From: Bacteroidales bacterium
Lineage (GTDB): Bacteria > Bacteroidota > Bacteroidia > Bacteroidales > PUMT01
Assembly: GCA_007132225.1 (NCBI GenBank)
Contig: SLPB01000071.1
Span: 13,811 to 77,810 of the forward strand
Direction: 5' to 3'
Length of the DNA: 64,000 bases
Every line of letters starts with the position of its first letter. Position 1 is the first letter of the stretch. The notes beneath the pieces are model-generated. The model was not told the origin of the DNA. It worked only from the letters and a program-made list of their open reading frames with translations, and did no database searches. This document shows positions 34,595-43,007 of this stretch, one piece after another. The position numbers and the translations under genes were made by a program.

Positions 34595-35017
34595 ATGACT
34601 TCTTCGGAAAATATTGAGCATATAGGGATTATAAGTCATATTAGCGACAAGCTGGTAAAAGTCAGCATATTGCCAGAATCTGCCTGCGGAAATTGCAGGG
34701 CCAGGGGGTCCTGTTCGATCGGGGATACAAATGAAAAAACGCTTGAAGTATTCTGCTCATCCGGAGAAAACTATTCAGTAGGTGAACAAATAAAAGTGGT
34801 CATGGAGCATTCGCTTGGAATAAAAGCACTGGGACTGGGTTATCTGCTGCCGTTTCTTATTGTGCTGGTACAGTTAATCCTGCTGACAGCTCTTGGCATA
34901 AATGAAGGTATGGCAGGGTTGCTTTCACTTGCGATACTTGTCCCCTACTATATTACCCTTTCTTATTTCAAAGAATCTCTGAAAAAAGAATTTTCTTTCA
35001 GGTTAAAAAAATTGTAA
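34595..35017 (+). CDS. rseC: RseC/MucC-family membrane protein heading the rnf operon
   Basis: IEHIGII, SACGNCRARGSC, YSVGEQIKV, two C-terminal TM helices. Confidence 0.88.
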   Translation: MTSSENIEHIGIISHISDKLVKVSILPESACGNCRARGSCSIGDTNEKTLEVFCSSGENYSVGEQIKVVMEHSLGIKALGLGYLLPFLIVLVQLILLTALGINEGMAGLLSLAILVPYYITLSYFKESLKKEFSFRLKKL

Positions 35018-35029
35018 CAAATCTTAAAG

Positions 35030-35878
35030 ATGAGTGATGTTGTTATTAATTCAGTGATTATTGTTGGTGCGATGGGATTGGCGGCAGCCATAATTCTTTT
35101 CATGGTTGCCCAGAAATTCCACGTAGTCGAAGATCCCCGTATAGACCAGGTGGAGGAGGAACTGCCTGCTGCAAACTGTGGGGGCTGCGGATACCCGGGT
35201 TGCCGTGCTTTTGCGGAAGCACTTGTTAAAACAGATGATATATCAGATTTGCATTGTCCGGTAAGCGACAAAGATTCCATGGAAAAAATTGCCGCCATAT
35301 TAGGGAAAGAAATGGGAGAAATGAAACCACTGGTGGCAGTGGTACGCTGCGCCGGATCACCGGATAAGAGTCCCAGGACAAATATATACGACGGCACCCA
35401 TTCCTGTACAATCATATCTTCATTATATACAGGAGAAACAGGTTGTCCTTACGGCTGCCTCGGAATGGGCGAATGTGTTGATGCCTGTAATTTTGATGCT
35501 ATCCATATGAATGCGGATACTCAGCTCCCCGAGGTTACGGATGATCTGTGCACAGCCTGCAATGCATGTGTAGTGGCATGTCCCAGGGATATTATTGAGC
35601 TGCGAAAAAAGAATAAGAAAGATCGTAAAATCTTTGTATCCTGCATCAATGAGGATAAAGGAGGAGTAGCAAGAAAGAACTGCAAGGTGGCCTGCATCGG
35701 ATGCGGCAAATGTGTGAAAGTTTGCCCGTATGAGGCAATAACTCTGGAAAACAATCTTGCGTATATAGATCCTGATAAGTGCAGACTTTGCAGGAAATGT
35801 GCCCCGGAATGTCCCACGAATGCAATTCTGGAGATCAATTTCCCTGTAAAAAAGAAAAAGGAAGCAACAGCCGGGTAG
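35030..35878 (+). CDS. rnfB: Rnf complex subunit B (polyferredoxin)
   Basis: TM anchor, LPAANCGGCGYPGC, GCLGMGECVDAC, CTACNACVVACP, CIGCGKCVKVCP, CRLCRKCAPECP. Confidence 0.95.
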   Translation: MSDVVINSVIIVGAMGLAAAIILFMVAQKFHVVEDPRIDQVEEELPAANCGGCGYPGCRAFAEALVKTDDISDLHCPVSDKDSMEKIAAILGKEMGEMKPLVAVVRCAGSPDKSPRTNIYDGTHSCTIISSLYTGETGCPYGCLGMGECVDACNFDAIHMNADTQLPEVTDDLCTACNACVVACPRDIIELRKKNKKDRKIFVSCINEDKGGVARKNCKVACIGCGKCVKVCPYEAITLENNLAYIDPDKCRLCRKCAPECPTNAILEINFPVKKKKEATAG

Positions 35879-35984: not shown

Positions 35985-37316
35985 GTGATAAAAACATTTC
36001 CCAAAGGCGGCATACATCCCCCGGAGGATAAATTCTCGGCAGGCAGTCCTATTCAGGAACTCCCCCTTCCAAAATCCGTTATCATCCCTGTCTGCCAGCA
36101 CCTGGGGTCTCCCTCGGAGCCACTTGTAAAGAAGGGAGACCGGGTGAAGACCGGACAGATAATAGCTAAAAGCAGCGGTTTTGTCTCCACCAATATCCAC
36201 TCATCGGTAACCGGCAAGGTGGAAAAAGTCGACAAATTTACAGACAGCACCGGATACAGAAGGCTGGCAGTCTCAATTAATGTGGAAAAGGACCAGTGGG
36301 AAGATAATATTGACACCAGCAATACACTGAAAAAGCAAATAAATTCCAAGGCAGAAGAAATAATCAAAAAAATCCTGGATGCAGGGATCGTCGGAATGGG
36401 CGGGGCCACCTTTCCTTCACATATAAAACTGTCCGTGCCTAAAGGCAAAAAAGTCGAAGTGCTTATAATCAATGGTGTAGAGTGTGAGCCCTGCCTTACC
36501 TCAGACCACAGGCTGATGCTGGAAAAAGGAGAAGAGATGATGGTTGGGGTCCGGCTTATGATGACAGCCCTTGGTGTTAACAGAGCCGTAATTGGAATTG
36601 AAAACAATAAGCCCGATGCTATAAGCAACCTGAAAACAATTGCCAAAGATTACAAGACTATAGAAGTTCAGGTTTTAAAGGTGAAATATCCTCAGGGCGC
36701 AGAAAAACAGTTGATAAAATCCATCACCCGCCGGGAAGTACCTTCCGGAAAACTTCCAATTGAAGTTGGAGCAGTTGTCCATAACGTGGAAACTGCGTAT
36801 GCAGTTTATGAGGCAGTCCAGAAAAATAAGCCTCTTATAGAAAGAGTTGTTACGGTTACCGGGAAAAATATCGCCAAACCCTCCAATTTCATGGTAAGAA
36901 CAGGAACCCCGGTCGCATATCTCATTGAGGCGGCGGGAGGTCTCCCGGAAGATACAGGCAAAATAATTAACGGCGGACCGATGATGGGTAAGGCGCTCAA
37001 CTCCCTCGATGTGCCGGTAACAAAGGGAACATCTGGTATACTCGTTGTTCCCCAGTCAGAATCATTACGCAGGCCTGCACTTAACTGTATCAGGTGCGCA
37101 AAATGTGTAAGCATTTGTCCAATGGGGCTGGAACCCTACCTGCTCAGGGCGGCTTCCGAACATAAAAAATGGGATATTGTGGAGGAGGAGCGTTCGATGG
37201 ACTGTATGGAATGCGGATCATGCAGCTATGTTTGTCCCTCCGCCATCCCTTTACTGGATTATATCCGTCTGGGCAAATCAACGGTAAGTAAAATCATCAG
37301 GTCAAGGAAACAATGA
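35985..37316 (+). CDS. rnfC: Rnf complex subunit C
   Basis: GTG start; TFPKGGIHPP, GIVGMGGATFP, NGVECEP, KYPQGAEKQLI, GGPMMG, CIRCAKC..CP, CMECGSC..CP. Confidence 0.97.
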   Translation: MIKTFPKGGIHPPEDKFSAGSPIQELPLPKSVIIPVCQHLGSPSEPLVKKGDRVKTGQIIAKSSGFVSTNIHSSVTGKVEKVDKFTDSTGYRRLAVSINVEKDQWEDNIDTSNTLKKQINSKAEEIIKKILDAGIVGMGGATFPSHIKLSVPKGKKVEVLIINGVECEPCLTSDHRLMLEKGEEMMVGVRLMMTALGVNRAVIGIENNKPDAISNLKTIAKDYKTIEVQVLKVKYPQGAEKQLIKSITRREVPSGKLPIEVGAVVHNVETAYAVYEAVQKNKPLIERVVTVTGKNIAKPSNFMVRTGTPVAYLIEAAGGLPEDTGKIINGGPMMGKALNSLDVPVTKGTSGILVVPQSESLRRPALNCIRCAKCVSICPMGLEPYLLRAASEHKKWDIVEEERSMDCMECGSCSYVCPSAIPLLDYIRLGKSTVSKIIRSRKQ

Positions 37317-37443: not shown

Positions 37444-38445
37444 ATGGATAAATTAATTACCGTCTCTCCCTCACCCCATTATTACGGAGACACCACCGTA
37501 AAAAAACTCATGTACGGGGTTGTATTTGCCCTGCTGCCTGCATTTTTTGTTTCTGTATATTTCTTTGGGATCGGGGCATTGATTGTTACCGCAATTAGCA
37601 TACTATCCTGCCTGGCTTTCGAATACCTGATTCAGAAATACCTGATGAAAGCGGAGCCTTCTATAAGCGACGGATCGGCACTGGTAACGGGGCTCCTGCT
37701 GGCCTTCAATCTTCCCACGAACCTGCCCTGGTGGATAATAATTATCGGGGCCCTGGTTGCAATCGGGGTTGGAAAGATGACTTTCGGGGGACTGGGGAAT
37801 AACCCCTTTAATCCCGCACTGGTAGGCAGGGTGTTTTTGTTCATTTCTTTCCCTGTTCAGATGACCAGCTGGCCAACACCTATAGCCTCAAGACTTCAAT
37901 ACACCGATGCGGTTACCGGACCAACCCCGCTGGGAATTATGGAAGAAGGATTATCTCAACAAGAAACGGCGGCCCAGCTAATGGAACAGATCCCCGGATA
38001 TATGGAACTCTTCCTGGGCTCTATTCGTGGCAGCATGGGAGAAATATCGGCTATCGCCCTGATCGTGGGGGGAATATATATGCTGATAAGAAAAATTATT
38101 ACCTGGCACATCCCGGTATCCATTATCCTGTCGGTACTGGCTTTCACCGGGATACTCTGGTTGATGAATCCATATGATAATGCCGACCCTCTTTTCCACC
38201 TGCTTAGCGGAGGATTGATGCTGGGGGCAATCTATATGGCAACAGATTATGTAACTTCCCCAATGACGATAAAGGGTATGTGGATATTCGGTATCGGTAT
38301 CGGTGTGATAACCGTTGCCATAAGGGTGTTTGGAGCATATCCGGAAGGAGTATCGTTCGCTATACTGATAATGAACGCTTTTGTACCCCTTATAAATAAA
38401 TATGTTAAACCTAAAGGATTCGGAGAGGAGGTGAGAAATGGCTAA
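37444..38445 (+). CDS. rnfD: Rnf complex subunit D
   Basis: SPSPH, FGGLGNNPFNPALVGR, FMN-site DAVTGPTPL, MATDYVTSP, YPEGVSFAIL. Confidence 0.97.
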   Translation: MDKLITVSPSPHYYGDTTVKKLMYGVVFALLPAFFVSVYFFGIGALIVTAISILSCLAFEYLIQKYLMKAEPSISDGSALVTGLLLAFNLPTNLPWWIIIIGALVAIGVGKMTFGGLGNNPFNPALVGRVFLFISFPVQMTSWPTPIASRLQYTDAVTGPTPLGIMEEGLSQQETAAQLMEQIPGYMELFLGSIRGSMGEISAIALIVGGIYMLIRKIITWHIPVSIILSVLAFTGILWLMNPYDNADPLFHLLSGGLMLGAIYMATDYVTSPMTIKGMWIFGIGIGVITVAIRVFGAYPEGVSFAILIMNAFVPLINKYVKPKGFGEEVRNG

Positions 38446-39484
38446 AAGAGAATCTACCTTCATTAATATGGTAATGGCGCTGCTGACAATAACTCTTATT
38501 GCATCTGCTTCCCTGGGATTTATTTATGAGCTGACCAAAGAACCGATCGAAAGAGCCGCCCTGGCTAAAAGAAATGAGGCTATCGGCTCAGTAGTGCCGG
38601 AATTTGATAATGACCCTTTCGGGGAACAGTACACCATAGAGATACCCGAGGGAGAACTGGTGGTGTTTCCGGCTAAAAAAGACGGGGAGATCACAGGAGT
38701 GGCCATAGAAACATTTACCAACAGGGGGTTTAGCGGTGAAATAAGATTGATGGTGGGAATACTGCCCGATGGCACCATTCACGGCATTGAAGTCCTAGAA
38801 CACAGGGAAACACCCGGTCTTGGCGATAAAATTGAATCGGACAAGTCAGATTTCCATTTGCAGTTCGAAGGAGAAAATCCAAAAGAAGACTTCCAGATCA
38901 GGATCAGGCAGGATGGCGGGGATATAGATGCCATAACGGCAACCACAATAAGCTCCAGGGCATACTGTGATGCAGTGCAGCGTGCCTGGAACGCATATAT
39001 GGATGTGGATACCGGGAATGGACACGAACTGCCCTCAACAGAGGAAGCAATAAACAGTGTACTGCCTGAATATGGCAACAATCCGGTTAATGAAGAGTAC
39101 CAGGTAGTACATGAAGACAAAGTTTTTAATATTTACCCGGGCAGAAAGGGAAGAAGGTTTACCGGCATCGCAGTTGAGTCATATTCAGAATCAGGATATA
39201 TGGGACCAATAAGACTTTTGACAGGCTTTAATCCAGATGGAATTATAACGGGAGTTGAGGTGCTGGAACACCAGGAGACCCAGGGATATGGCGACCTGAT
39301 TGAAAATAGCAGATCGGACTTCTACAAACAATTCATAGGCAGGAATCCCTCTGAAGAAGTTCTGAATTTAAGGGAAGATGGAGGAGTAATTGACGGAATC
39401 AGTGGTGCAACAGTTACCTCACAGGCCTATTGTGAAGCGGTCCGCCTTGCATATGAGGTGTTTGAAAAGGAGGGAAAGAAATAA
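38438..39484 (+). CDS. rnfG: Rnf complex subunit G with two tandem FMN-binding domains
   Basis: One TM helix, then two homologous domains: H.ETPGLG...DAITATTISS and H.ETQGYG...DGISGATVTS; 348 aa. Confidence 0.93.
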   Translation: MAKRESTFINMVMALLTITLIASASLGFIYELTKEPIERAALAKRNEAIGSVVPEFDNDPFGEQYTIEIPEGELVVFPAKKDGEITGVAIETFTNRGFSGEIRLMVGILPDGTIHGIEVLEHRETPGLGDKIESDKSDFHLQFEGENPKEDFQIRIRQDGGDIDAITATTISSRAYCDAVQRAWNAYMDVDTGNGHELPSTEEAINSVLPEYGNNPVNEEYQVVHEDKVFNIYPGRKGRRFTGIAVESYSESGYMGPIRLLTGFNPDGIITGVEVLEHQETQGYGDLIENSRSDFYKQFIGRNPSEEVLNLREDGGVIDGISGATVTSQAYCEAVRLAYEVFEKEGKK

Positions 39485-39582: not shown

Positions 39583-40158
39583 ATGGATCAGGTAAAAAAT
39601 TTCACCAAAGGGTTTATAAGGGAAAACCCGGTATTTGCCCTGATGCTGGGGTTGTGCCCGGCACTCGGTACAACAACCTCGGCATATAACGGAATGGGCA
39701 TGGGACTTGCCACATTGTTTGTGGTTGTAATGTCAAACATCGTGGTTTCCCTGATAAAAAATTTTGTTCCCAACAAGGTCAGAATACCCAGCTATATAGT
39801 TATAATTGCTTCCTTTGTCACGATCGTCGACCTGGTAATGGCAGGATACATGCCGGCATTGCATGAACAGCTCGGACTCTTTATTCCACTTATCGTAGTG
39901 AACTGCTTTGTCCTGGGACGTGCTGAAGCCTTTGCTCAAAAGAACACACTGGGCTCCTCAATAATTGACGGCACCGGAATGGGGCTCGGATTTACCCTGG
40001 CGCTTACCATGCTGGGAGCTGCCCGTGAGATCCTGGGTAGTTATTCCCTGTTTGGGTTTCAGTTTATCCGGGACGACGGAATGCTGATATTTATCCTTGC
40101 TCCCGGCGCATTCATTGCTTTGGGATACCTGATAGCACTGACAAATAGATTGAAATAA
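39583..40158 (+). CDS. rnfE: Rnf complex subunit E
   Basis: ENPVFALMLGLCPALG, KVRIP, FIPLIVVNCFVLGRAEAFA. Confidence 0.97.
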   Translation: MDQVKNFTKGFIRENPVFALMLGLCPALGTTTSAYNGMGMGLATLFVVVMSNIVVSLIKNFVPNKVRIPSYIVIIASFVTIVDLVMAGYMPALHEQLGLFIPLIVVNCFVLGRAEAFAQKNTLGSSIIDGTGMGLGFTLALTMLGAAREILGSYSLFGFQFIRDDGMLIFILAPGAFIALGYLIALTNRLK

Positions 40159-40176: not shown

Positions 40177-40749
40177 ATGGAATATATTGCAATTGTATTG
40201 TCAGCCATACTGGTTAATAACATAGTACTGGCACAATTTCTCGGACTTTGTCCCTTTTTCGGGGTATCAAACAAAATATCCACCGCCGCAGGTATGGGTG
40301 GCGCCGTCTTATTTGTAATGACAGTTGCCGCTATAGTCACCTACCTGATATCACACTACATTCTTATTCCCTATGACCTTATTTACCTGAGGACCGTTAC
40401 CTATATCCTGGTAATCTCTTCCCTGGTGCAGATGGTGGAGATCATCCTCAAAAAAGTCAGTCCCCCGCTCTACCAGGCACTCGGGATATTCCTGCCACTG
40501 ATGACCACCAACTGTGCAATTCTCGGTGTGGCGATACTGGTAATTCAACAGGAACACACTCTTATTAGCGGGGTGGTTTTTGCAATTGCACACGCCATAG
40601 GCTTTACCCTCGCACTTGTTATACTTGGAGGTATCCGCGAGCAGCTGGAGCTTCTGAATGTACCCAAAGGTATGAGAGGCAACCCGGTAATACTGGTTGC
40701 TGCCGGATTGCTGGCAATGGCTTTTATGGGATTTGCGGGTATTGTCTGA
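40177..40749 (+). CDS. rnfA: Rnf complex subunit A
   Basis: NNIVLAQFLGLCPFFGVS, LGIFLPLMTTNCAILG, GIRE, MAFMGF. Confidence 0.97.
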   Translation: MEYIAIVLSAILVNNIVLAQFLGLCPFFGVSNKISTAAGMGGAVLFVMTVAAIVTYLISHYILIPYDLIYLRTVTYILVISSLVQMVEIILKKVSPPLYQALGIFLPLMTTNCAILGVAILVIQQEHTLISGVVFAIAHAIGFTLALVILGGIREQLELLNVPKGMRGNPVILVAAGLLAMAFMGFAGIV

Positions 40750-40906: not shown

Positions 40907-41626
40907 ATGCCGTTAAAAGTTATAAATATTGCAGCATTCGTGATTATGGTTTTTATGAACTACCTGGCAAACGCCATGCCCCTGGGTGGTAAAACCACCG
41001 GTGAGCTTTCAGCTCAGTATCCCAACCTTTTCGTGCCTGCAGGAATAACCTTTTCCATATGGGGAATCATCTATCTTCTGCTGCTTGGATTTGTCGTATT
41101 ACAGTTCAGAGAAGAAAACAGGGACATGGTAAATGCAATGGGCTGGTTGTTCGCCTTTAGCTGCATACTAAATTCTTTGTGGATACTGGCCTGGCACTAT
41201 GAAAACCTGGCTTTATCACTGATTATCATGCTGCTGCTGTTGTTAACGCTGATAATGATCAATTACAGGCTCACCCCGTATGAGGGGGGGGTAACCAAAG
41301 CTGCTTTCGGAATATACCTGGGATGGATATGCATAGCAACCATTGCCAATGTTACGGCCATTCTGGTATCGGTTAACTGGCAGGGATGGGGCATCTCCAA
41401 TGAGGTGTGGGCAGTGGTGATGGTACTGGCGGGAACGGTTATCACATTATTTATACTTAAAACCTACCGGAATCCCTTCACAGGCATTGCTGTAATCTGG
41501 GCACTTGCAGGCATTATGATTGCAAGGTGGCCCGACCACAAACCGATCCTGGTCATGGCAGGAATATCAATAATTGCTATTGCCGTTATCTCTTTTATTG
41601 TCACATTCCGTAATTTATCTGCCTGA
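40907..41626 (+). CDS. TspO/MBR-related multi-TM tryptophan-rich membrane protein
   Basis: NYLANAMPLGG, FVPAGITFSIWGIIY, IYLGWICIATIAN, about 8 hydrophobic segments. Confidence 0.75.
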   Translation: MPLKVINIAAFVIMVFMNYLANAMPLGGKTTGELSAQYPNLFVPAGITFSIWGIIYLLLLGFVVLQFREENRDMVNAMGWLFAFSCILNSLWILAWHYENLALSLIIMLLLLLTLIMINYRLTPYEGGVTKAAFGIYLGWICIATIANVTAILVSVNWQGWGISNEVWAVVMVLAGTVITLFILKTYRNPFTGIAVIWALAGIMIARWPDHKPILVMAGISIIAIAVISFIVTFRNLSA

Positions 41627-41699
41627 TATTATACATGTCATCAAAATAAAGCCTCATTATATTACCCGAAATTATTGCTTAATAAACAACTTTATTCTA

Positions 41700-43007
41700 A
41701 TGAGACATTCGTTAACTATTCCCTTTCTCTCTTTAATTGTTTTATTATATTCCTGTGACGGAAGTTTAAACACAAATACAGACGGTTCAGGACAACTTGC
41801 TGATATTTCTGCTGCAGATGCCGGCTTTAATGAGAAGAATATTTCTGCGCTGGACAGCCTTTTTAATGATTACATTGCCAGCCAGGCTATCGCTTCAGCT
41901 GAGATAATGGTAGTGAAAAACGGGGGCATTGCGTACCATAAATCCTTTTCCCCTGCAGGAGTATGCAAAGGGCGTGATTCGATATACAGGATAATGTCAA
42001 TGACCAAGGCCATAACCAGCGTGGCAGCAATGCAGCTTTATGAGCAGGGAAGATTTCTGCTGGATGACCACATAGAAAATTATATTCCCGAATTTAAGAA
42101 TATGCAGGTGCTGCAGTCTGTAAATCATTCCGACAGCACATACACTTCTGTCCCCGCTCAACGAAAGATCACCATACGTGATCTGCTGAGGCATACCAGC
42201 GGACTGGCTTACAGCTTCAGCTCTCCGGAGATGCAGATAATATATCCAAGGGAGGGTGTTGTGGAGGCATTTGCAGTTGGCGGGGAGGTTAATACCCTTG
42301 CCGATAATATGCGAGTACTTGGTAATGTACCTCTTGTTCATGAACCGGGCACCATGTATACATATGGAGTGAGCACCGATGTGCTTGGTTACCTTATTGA
42401 GGTGATTTCCGGTCAGAGCTTTGATGAATACCTTAAGGAGCATATCTTTGAACCCCTGGGAATGGAAGACAGCTACTTTTTTGTTCCTGAAGAGAAAGCC
42501 GGCAGACTGGCAAAAGTTTATGCAAACACTGAAGATAAACCAATCGTTAAAATGGAGCCTTCATTGATAACGGAGTACCAAACCATGACCGGAGGGAAAT
42601 TCTTTTCAGGCGGTGCCGGCCTTTGTACCACCGCCAAAGATTATGCGATCTTTTTGCAGATGCTCCTCAACGGTGGCAAATTTGGCGAAGCAAGGCTCCT
42701 GGGGACAAAAACCATAGACCTGATGGTTACAAACCAGCTGGCAGGCATCAATCCGCCGGCAGATAATGGCGGACCGGGTGAGAGAACATTTGCTTTCGGA
42801 CTGGGGTTCGAACTGGGCACAGACTATTCATACAGAAAAAGGCCTGGCTCACTCCAAAGATATTCCTGGGGGGGCGCACTTAGCACAACTTTCTGGTGGG
42901 ATAAAGAAAATGACCTGGCAGTGATCGGAATGATACAGATGCACCCGTTCTTCCATAGAGATATGTGGAGAAAAATGGAGGTGATCATCTACGGGGCAGT
43001 TATCTGA
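41700..43007 (+). CDS. Serine hydrolase, beta-lactamase class C-like, lipoprotein
   Basis: Likely start ATG 41700 (MRHS...LLYSC lipobox); SxxK motif SMTK, ITIRDLLRHTSG, EPGTMYTYG, WGGA. Confidence 0.88.
   Translation: MRHSLTIPFLSLIVLLYSCDGSLNTNTDGSGQLADISAADAGFNEKNISALDSLFNDYIASQAIASAEIMVVKNGGIAYHKSFSPAGVCKGRDSIYRIMSMTKAITSVAAMQLYEQGRFLLDDHIENYIPEFKNMQVLQSVNHSDSTYTSVPAQRKITIRDLLRHTSGLAYSFSSPEMQIIYPREGVVEAFAVGGEVNTLADNMRVLGNVPLVHEPGTMYTYGVSTDVLGYLIEVISGQSFDEYLKEHIFEPLGMEDSYFFVPEEKAGRLAKVYANTEDKPIVKMEPSLITEYQTMTGGKFFSGGAGLCTTAKDYAIFLQMLLNGGKFGEARLLGTKTIDLMVTNQLAGINPPADNGGPGERTFAFGLGFELGTDYSYRKRPGSLQRYSWGGALSTTFWWDKENDLAVIGMIQMHPFFHRDMWRKMEVIIYGAVI

Follow-up and report, generated by a model that had tools for sequence, protein, structure and literature searches.

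A Bacteroidales RnfG with two tandem flavin-binding domains, and what a second flavin may do in Rnf

Rnf is an ion-pumping ferredoxin:NAD+ oxidoreductase and one of the central pumps by which anaerobes conserve energy. Its sole redox centre exposed outside the cytoplasmic membrane is RnfG. We analysed a stretch of 64,000 nucleotides (nts) from an uncultured Bacteroidales genus (assembly GCA_007132225.1, contig SLPB01000071.1, positions 13,811 to 77,810), which as a whole we call the window. The rnfG gene in the window codes for a protein with two flavin-binding domains in tandem. The questions raised by this locus are which of the two domains is the ordinary RnfG domain, where the other one comes from, and what a second flavin would do in Rnf. 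Our answer to the last question, which we think rather likely, is that the acceptor threonines of both domains (T170 and T325) carry flavin mononucleotide (FMN) attached by a single ApbE, with domain 1 acting as the in-line shuttle and domain 2 as a tethered accessory flavin that serves as a side port or buffer.

Architecture of the two-domain RnfG

The rnfG gene has the following features, given in window positions and amino acid (aa) residues.

38438..39484, plus strand: rnfG, 348 aa, two FMN_bind domains; an open frame without stops, with Pfam and NCBIfam matches.
38459..38527, plus strand: N-terminal transmembrane anchor, approximately aa 8-30; helix 8-52 in the AlphaFold2 (AF2) model, with K3 and R4 before the hydrophobic stretch.
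38543..39016, plus strand: domain 1, aa 36-193, with acceptor T170 in D-A-I-T-A-T-T; by sequence, the orthologue of ordinary single-domain RnfG.
38945-38947, plus strand: codon of T170 (D164-AITAT-T170; motif region 38927-38953).
39008..39046, plus strand: inter-domain linker, aa 191-203; predicted local distance difference test (pLDDT) below 50 at residues 191-195, and no invariant columns.
39020..39481, plus strand: domain 2, aa 195-348, with acceptor T325 in D-G-I-S-G-A-T; by sequence, the added FMN_bind domain.
39410-39412, plus strand: codon of T325 (D319-GISGA-T325; motif region 39392-39418).

The Pfam family FMN_bind (PF04205) matches RnfG in two stretches (E 5e-39, 133 bits for a cut-off of 22), and so does the NCBIfam rnfG model TIGR01947 (267.6 bits for a cut-off of 102). 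When the two halves are compared with each other, residues 42-187 and 198-343 are 45% identical over 146 residues (E 1e-47). The original prediction, made by a model from the letters of the sequence and a list of open reading frames, had proposed two homologous FMN-binding domains after one transmembrane helix. The family matches and the identity between the halves confirm that proposal, and the sequence strings and residue numbers that it quoted around T170 and T325 are exact. The start of rnfG overlaps the stop of rnfD by 8 nts, and GGAGAGGAGG lies upstream of the rnfG ATG.

The AF2 model of RnfG, built on a 76-row alignment, has a mean pLDDT of 84.4 and a predicted template modelling score (pTM) of 0.50, and each domain is well predicted. 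In the model, T170 begins helix 170-191 and T325 begins helix 325-346, which are the long terminal helices of the two domains. The Thr that starts the terminal helix is also where FMN is attached in the RnfG of C. tetanomorphum (7ZC6; PMC9588780). The best Foldseek matches are the RnfG chains 8ahx_G (E 1e-11, template modelling score on the target 0.69), 8RB8/9, 9eri_G and 7zc6_G, followed by NqrC, such that model and matches agree on a single N-terminal transmembrane anchor and an RnfG/NqrC fold. The transmembrane helix runs on as a linker helix to approximately residue 52, like in the solved RnfG structures. The protein thus shares with canonical RnfG and NqrC (TIGR01947; 7ZC6_G, 8AHX_G, 9ERI_G) the transmembrane anchor, the linker helix, the alpha/beta FMN domain, and the FMN-bearing Thr at the start of the C-terminal helix. 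It differs from them by an extra copy of the domain, 150 aa in length, placed after the C-terminal helix. In its overall shape, the predicted model looks like beads on a string.

A tandem repeat in a metagenome-derived contig might be an artefact of assembly or annotation, arising either from a contig that was collapsed or duplicated or from a gene fusion. The probability of this is negligible. The gene is a single uninterrupted frame, its halves are just 45% identical, and we find no repeat between them at the DNA level. In addition, the two-domain form is present in all 16 genomes sampled from the genus, which are independent assemblies with 68-83% identity (two of the copies are cut by contig ends), as well as on many metagenome contigs. 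The missing DNA repeat and the agreement of the 16 assemblies rule out an assembly duplication, which had been judged unlikely beforehand because the halves are diverged, a judgement that is borne out. The lack of a DNA-level repeat also indicates that the duplication is old.

Origin and recurrence of the second domain

In order to identify the original domain, we searched for homologues over 41 related genomes, including the 16 of the window's genus, cut these and all other homologues retrieved into domains using a hidden Markov model (HMM), and built domain trees with FastTree (173 rows) and IQ-TREE (69 rows). Sister genera of the same family have an RnfG frame of 193-208 aa that is 63-66% identical to residues 1-189 only. 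In the IQ-TREE tree, domain 1 of the genus falls among the single-domain RnfGs of Bacteroidales with a support of 94/98. The domain 2 sequences form a clade of their own (100/100), which has a long stem (1.25 changes per site) and lies inside the same Bacteroidales RnfG clade (90/84). Their link to the second domain of a 412-aa relative is weak (87/93), and they stand apart from the second domains in the remaining two-domain lineages. At the level of sequence, domain 1 is thereby shown to be the orthologue of ordinary single-domain RnfG. Because domain 1 nests among single-domain RnfGs and domain 2 sits on a long stem in the same clade, the C-terminal domain is, by these trees, an addition made from RnfG's own domain that then diverged quickly. 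The event would have been an old in-frame tandem duplication of the periplasmic FMN-binding domain, at the base of this genus or before it.

How common are such proteins? A representative library with one protein per 50%-identity cluster gives 7525 matches. We segmented 266 retrieved proteins and found two domains in 81 and three to six in 22, the longest protein being 1019 aa. Three of them (P0124, P0157 and P0206, 858-1019 aa) have five or six FMN_bind-type domains, and each starts with an RnfG-type transmembrane anchor and first domain. In an even sample of the order with 401 genomes in 148 families, RnfG is found in 326 genomes. Among the matches listed (approximately 150 rows), five families, the window's own being one of them, have matches that span both domains, and approximately 95% of the sampled Bacteroidales are single-domain. 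For many proteins, the first and second domains of the same protein are sisters in the IQ-TREE tree (100/99, 100/96, 100/97, 100/100 and 99/96), and in the 173-row FastTree tree there are roughly 20 such sister clades, which implies that the duplication happened many times. Alternatively, intragenic gene conversion could make the two domains of a protein look like sisters. A single origin of all second domains in Bacteroidota is unsupported by the domain trees. On this sequence evidence, multi-domain RnfG is a scattered minority in the order that has arisen independently many times. The original prediction had given the double-domain form being the common state of the clade as a result that would count against it; that is the case for the genus, where it is found in 16 out of 16 genomes, and not for the family or the order. 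At least two named records of the genus, among the matches listed, are uncultured metagenome-assembled genomes with “CSSed...” isolate labels, which, as a guess from these labels, might come from sediment or saline samples.

Acceptor sites and selective constraint

ApbE is reported to recognize the motif D-x-x-[S/T]-G-A-[S/T], in which a G-to-A substitution, or an A-to-V substitution at position -1 from the acceptor, merely halves flavinylation (PMC12052999). Domain 2 has the canonical motif, as D319-G-I-S-G-A-T325. Domain 1 departs from the strict motif, as D164-A-I-T-A-T-T170 has A at position -2 and T at position -1, whereas the solved proteins from proteobacteria and clostridia have S/A-G-A-T. 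In the alignment with the A. vinelandii RnfG (AGAT, 8AHX_G), T170 falls on the Thr that bears the FMN.

We aligned 411 domains to one HMM to see what is usual at these positions. The domains that are alone in their protein (163) have T at -3 in 150 cases, A at -2 in 148, and S, A or T at -1, with an acceptor T in every aligned one. The first domains of multi-domain proteins follow the same T-A-[A/T/S]-T pattern. The distal domains (145) are S-G-A-T-like, with G at -2 in 126 of them and a Thr or Ser acceptor in 144. The split is also observed when the window's genus is left out (among homologues P0001-P0266, TA in 47/70 proximal domains versus SG in 67/112 distal ones), and the proximal T-A-[S/A/T]-T and the distal S-G-A-T hold across lineages with apparently independent duplications. 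Amongst the best 120 homologues, the single-domain Bacteroidales RnfGs read DAITASTIS or DAITAATIS, and one reads DAITATTIS. Read against its relatives, T-A-T-T170 is the normal RnfG motif of the clade with one conservative change, not a degenerate site, and domain 1 probably keeps its flavinylation function. Thus DAITATT, which had been called non-canonical, is so with respect to the textbook SGAT but not within the clade, whose 163 single-domain sequences have T-A-x-T as their norm.

A single ApbE is encoded in the genome (PF02424, 297 bits; G000:C121:15836-16669), on the contig of the nqrC match and approximately 3 kb downstream of it. The other flavinylation motifs in the genome are SGAT in NqrB, SGGT in NqrC and TGPT in RnfD. 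NqrC (L014 1108-1842) reads DGISGGTIT, with a Gly before the acceptor Thr. RnfD reads D-A-V-T-G-P-T-P-L (window 37906-37932), with a Pro before it, and across Bacteroidota position -1 of RnfD is Ala or Pro. Since the sites differ at position -1, the single ApbE must accept A, G, P, S or T there if all of them are flavinylated. This range of sites, like the flavinylation retained after the published substitutions, argues that the T-A-T-T of domain 1 is tolerated. The proximal and distal patterns likewise suggest that ApbE recognition in Bacteroidota is broader than the textbook motif, which matters for predicting flavinylated proteins from sequence.

We measured constraint on an alignment of 32 sequence clusters of the genus. 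Domain 1 has a mean pairwise identity of 76.9% with 45% invariant columns, domain 2 has 65.5% with 21%, and the linker has a mean identity of 52% and no invariant columns. T170 and T325 are each invariant in the 32 clusters, and so is A324, while S322 and G323 nearly are. The ratio of nonsynonymous to synonymous substitution rates (dN/dS) is 0.05-0.08 for domain 1 versus 0.12-0.22 for domain 2 in the least saturated genome pairs, values that are rough and rest on few pairs, as dS is above 1 or near saturation in most. The HxETPGLGDK loop of domain 1 is invariant in the genus, and domain 2 has lost parts of this ETPGLGDK signature. With the three FMN-holding loops mapped from the C. tetanomorphum description by approximate offset, 18 out of 30 loop columns in domain 2 are at least 90% conserved versus 36 out of 101 elsewhere. 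By these measures, both domains are under purifying selection and functional, with the stronger constraint on domain 1. A conserved acceptor Thr in each domain, together with purifying selection, makes two covalent FMNs plausible.

These results bear on two other ways to read the two halves. Because domain 1 departs from the textbook S-G-A-T, with a Thr at position -1, one could swap the roles and take the C-terminal domain as the working RnfG flavin and the membrane-proximal domain as a spacer. We disfavor this reading, which is very improbable given that T-A-x-T (TATT included) is standard in the single-domain RnfGs of the clade, that domain 1 combines 45% invariant columns with an invariant HxETPGLGDK loop and an invariant T170, that its dN/dS is lower, and that it is orthologous to the working domain of the sister genera. 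The greater constraint on domain 1 in itself counts against a spacer. The original prediction had offered a degenerate membrane-proximal spacer as its alternative, and we reject it: that domain is, by sequence, the orthologue of single-domain RnfG, with the T-A-x-T typical of the clade, and it is the more conserved half.

The other possibility is that domain 2 is redox-inactive in vivo, either unflavinylated or with a flavin that has no role in electron transfer, and acts as a structural or protective cap, for instance by stabilising the complex, or the exposed flavin of RnfG, where the periplasm is alkaline and saline. The relaxed constraint relative to domain 1 would agree with a cap, as would the lack of any partner found for domain 2, and a saline origin, if the guess from the isolate labels is right. 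We still regard it as quite improbable. In the 32 clusters, T325 and A324 are invariant and S322 and G323 are almost so, 144 out of 145 distal domains of multi-domain relatives retain the acceptor, and the conservation of domain 2 is enriched in the FMN-holding loops; a purely structural domain would need none of these features.

Domain 2 also has a specific hairpin, P-G-R-K-G-R (aa 234-239, window 39137-39154), in which R236, G238 and R239 are invariant in the genus. The matching loop in domain 1 is P-A-K-K-D-G. Going by its sequence, the hairpin could be a docking surface.

A proposed second flavin in the Rnf complex

In the mechanism that we favor, T170 and T325 would each receive a covalent FMN from the genome's ApbE. 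Domain 1 would keep the ordinary job of RnfG, a mobile carrier that swings with its electrons from the iron centre of RnfA/E to the FMN of RnfD and back. Domain 2 would be held by a flexible linker of approximately 10 residues at the end of the C-terminal helix of domain 1, as a bead on a string, and would exchange electrons with the domain-1 flavin. Its role would be that of a side port or buffer in the periplasm, for some soluble or membrane partner.

Related architectures have been described. Méheust et al. 2021 (eLife, PMC8238504) reported multi-flavinylated RnfGs in RNF gene clusters and proposed a second electron path to extracytosolic acceptors. The window RnfG belongs in this class, as an RnfG with more than one FMN_bind domain inside an rnf operon and a flavinylation site in each domain, and the same second-path hypothesis applies to it. 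Unlike that class, it has no cytochrome domain. The 2021 description is bioinformatic, without experiment on any such RnfG, and neither “Bacteroidota” nor “Bacteroidetes” occurs in its main text. The original prediction had suggested that a second FMN could extend the electron path, add storage, or link Rnf to an external partner. Two flavins are plausible and the idea is reasonable, but it is not new, as it was already published (PMC8238504). What we add is the lineage-specific origin of the domain, its fixation across the genus, its independent recurrence in Bacteroidota, and the difference between proximal and distal motifs. We found no experimental study of a multi-domain RnfG in the literature. 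The nearest experiments are those of Tong et al. 2023 (PMC10339131), who produced the recombinant 3-FMN and 4-FMN proteins SaFMN3 and CbFMN4 with ApbE and found covalent FMN, with three flavins in one of them. Huang et al. 2024 (PMC11334425) described multi-domain FMN-bind1 proteins as “beads-on-a-string”. All these proteins have tandem FMN_bind domains, each with an ApbE motif, and little predicted contact between domains; they differ from the window RnfG in being secreted or surface proteins, mostly Gram-positive, and not Rnf subunits.

The operon around rnfG, in which a partner for domain 2 might be expected, is as follows.

34595..35017, plus strand: RseC/MucC-family gene at the operon head, directly upstream of rnfB (PF04246, E 2.6e-25).
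35030..35878, plus strand: rnfB, polyferredoxin type, 282 aa (family match).
35985..37316, plus strand: rnfC (TIGR01945, 573.7 bits).
37444..38445, plus strand: rnfD, with the flavinylation motif D-A-V-T-G-P-T retained (NCBIfam match).
39583..40158, plus strand: rnfE (TIGR01948, 255.6 bits).
40177..40749, plus strand: rnfA (TIGR01943, 266.6 bits).

All six subunits are above the cut-offs, in the order B-C-D-G-E-A with rnfG between rnfD and rnfE, and the Pfam and NCBIfam matches confirm the complete rnf operon that had been called from the open reading frames. The order recG-rseC-rnfBCDGEA is common to four genomes of the genus and to two sister genera with single-domain RnfG. The RseC of E. 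coli acts with the Rsx complex, which is of the Rnf type, in the reduction of SoxR (PMC12174285).

We considered two further explanations for domain 2 in this context. One is that a partner gene was gained beside the operon together with domain 2. Such a gene is not found; recG-rseC-rnfBCDGEA is the same in the sister genera, and the 239-aa gene that follows rnfA (see below) is also found beside a single-domain operon. The other is that domain 2 compensates for a lost RnfD flavin, which we reject because the genus, like 78 single-domain relatives, retains the RnfD motif TG[A/P]T.

By rotating, canonical RnfG moves between a state that is blocked at 29 Å and one that conducts at 8 Å (PMC9588780). 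The main rival to a side port uses this geometry. In a two-station relay, each flavin domain would keep to one end of the path, one beside the iron centre of RnfA/E and one beside the flavin of RnfD, with electrons hopping from FMN to FMN. The large domain movement believed to gate ion pumping would then become smaller or different. On its short tether (linker 191-203), a second flavin could span the 29 Å/8 Å gap. The independent recurrence in many lineages suggests a benefit intrinsic to Rnf over a lineage-specific partner, and there is no operon-linked partner gene. We consider a relay improbable nonetheless. Domain 2 evolves at 2-3 times the rate of domain 1 and no longer has all of ETPGLGDK, which is unexpected for a domain docked on the conserved RnfA/E or RnfD. 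Approximately 95% of the sampled Bacteroidales, among the matches listed, use one domain with near-identical partner subunits, and the versions with three to six domains fit a wire or an outlet better.

Several points weigh against the accessory side port or buffer itself. No candidate redox partner adjoins the operon, and the synteny is identical in the single-domain sister genera. In a search of the genome, the only FMN_bind proteins are RnfG and NqrC. The placement of the domains with respect to each other is predicted with low confidence (pTM 0.50), which extends to any flavin-to-flavin distance. The 150 extra residues on a swinging subunit could have a mechanical or regulatory meaning instead. 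The roughness of the dN/dS values, described above, belongs here as well.

A second tethered flavin would be the simplest way to connect Rnf with periplasmic or extracellular redox chemistry, and the genus provides a clean natural comparison, as its operon is otherwise syntenic with that of one-domain sister genera. Beyond the genus, one may speculate that the distal RnfG domains of Bacteroidota, with repeated independent origins, each shifted from the in-complex T-A-x-T to the free-domain S-G-A-T, and that they are signs of Rnf having repeatedly turned from a closed ferredoxin:NAD+ pump into one with a periplasmic flavin port, or with a fixed two-flavin relay in place of the swinging shuttle. 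Rnf could then pass electrons to acceptors in the periplasm or outside the cell, or take electrons from them, in anaerobes that lack multihaem cytochromes. In this general form we hold the proposal to be unlikely, and offer it tentatively.

Just downstream of rnfA, at window 40907-41626, there is a Trp-rich polytopic membrane protein of 239 aa with no Pfam match at E <= 0.01. It follows rnfA in part of the genus and in one sister genus with a single-domain operon, and other genomes lack it. The next frame (window 41574-43007, 477 aa) has a TTG start and overlaps the preceding gene; it may be a serine hydrolase of the beta-lactamase type, a guess from the sequence alone. An internal Met followed by ...LLYSC resembles a lipoprotein signal, and for that reason the true start of this frame is probably approximately 42 codons downstream of the listed TTG.

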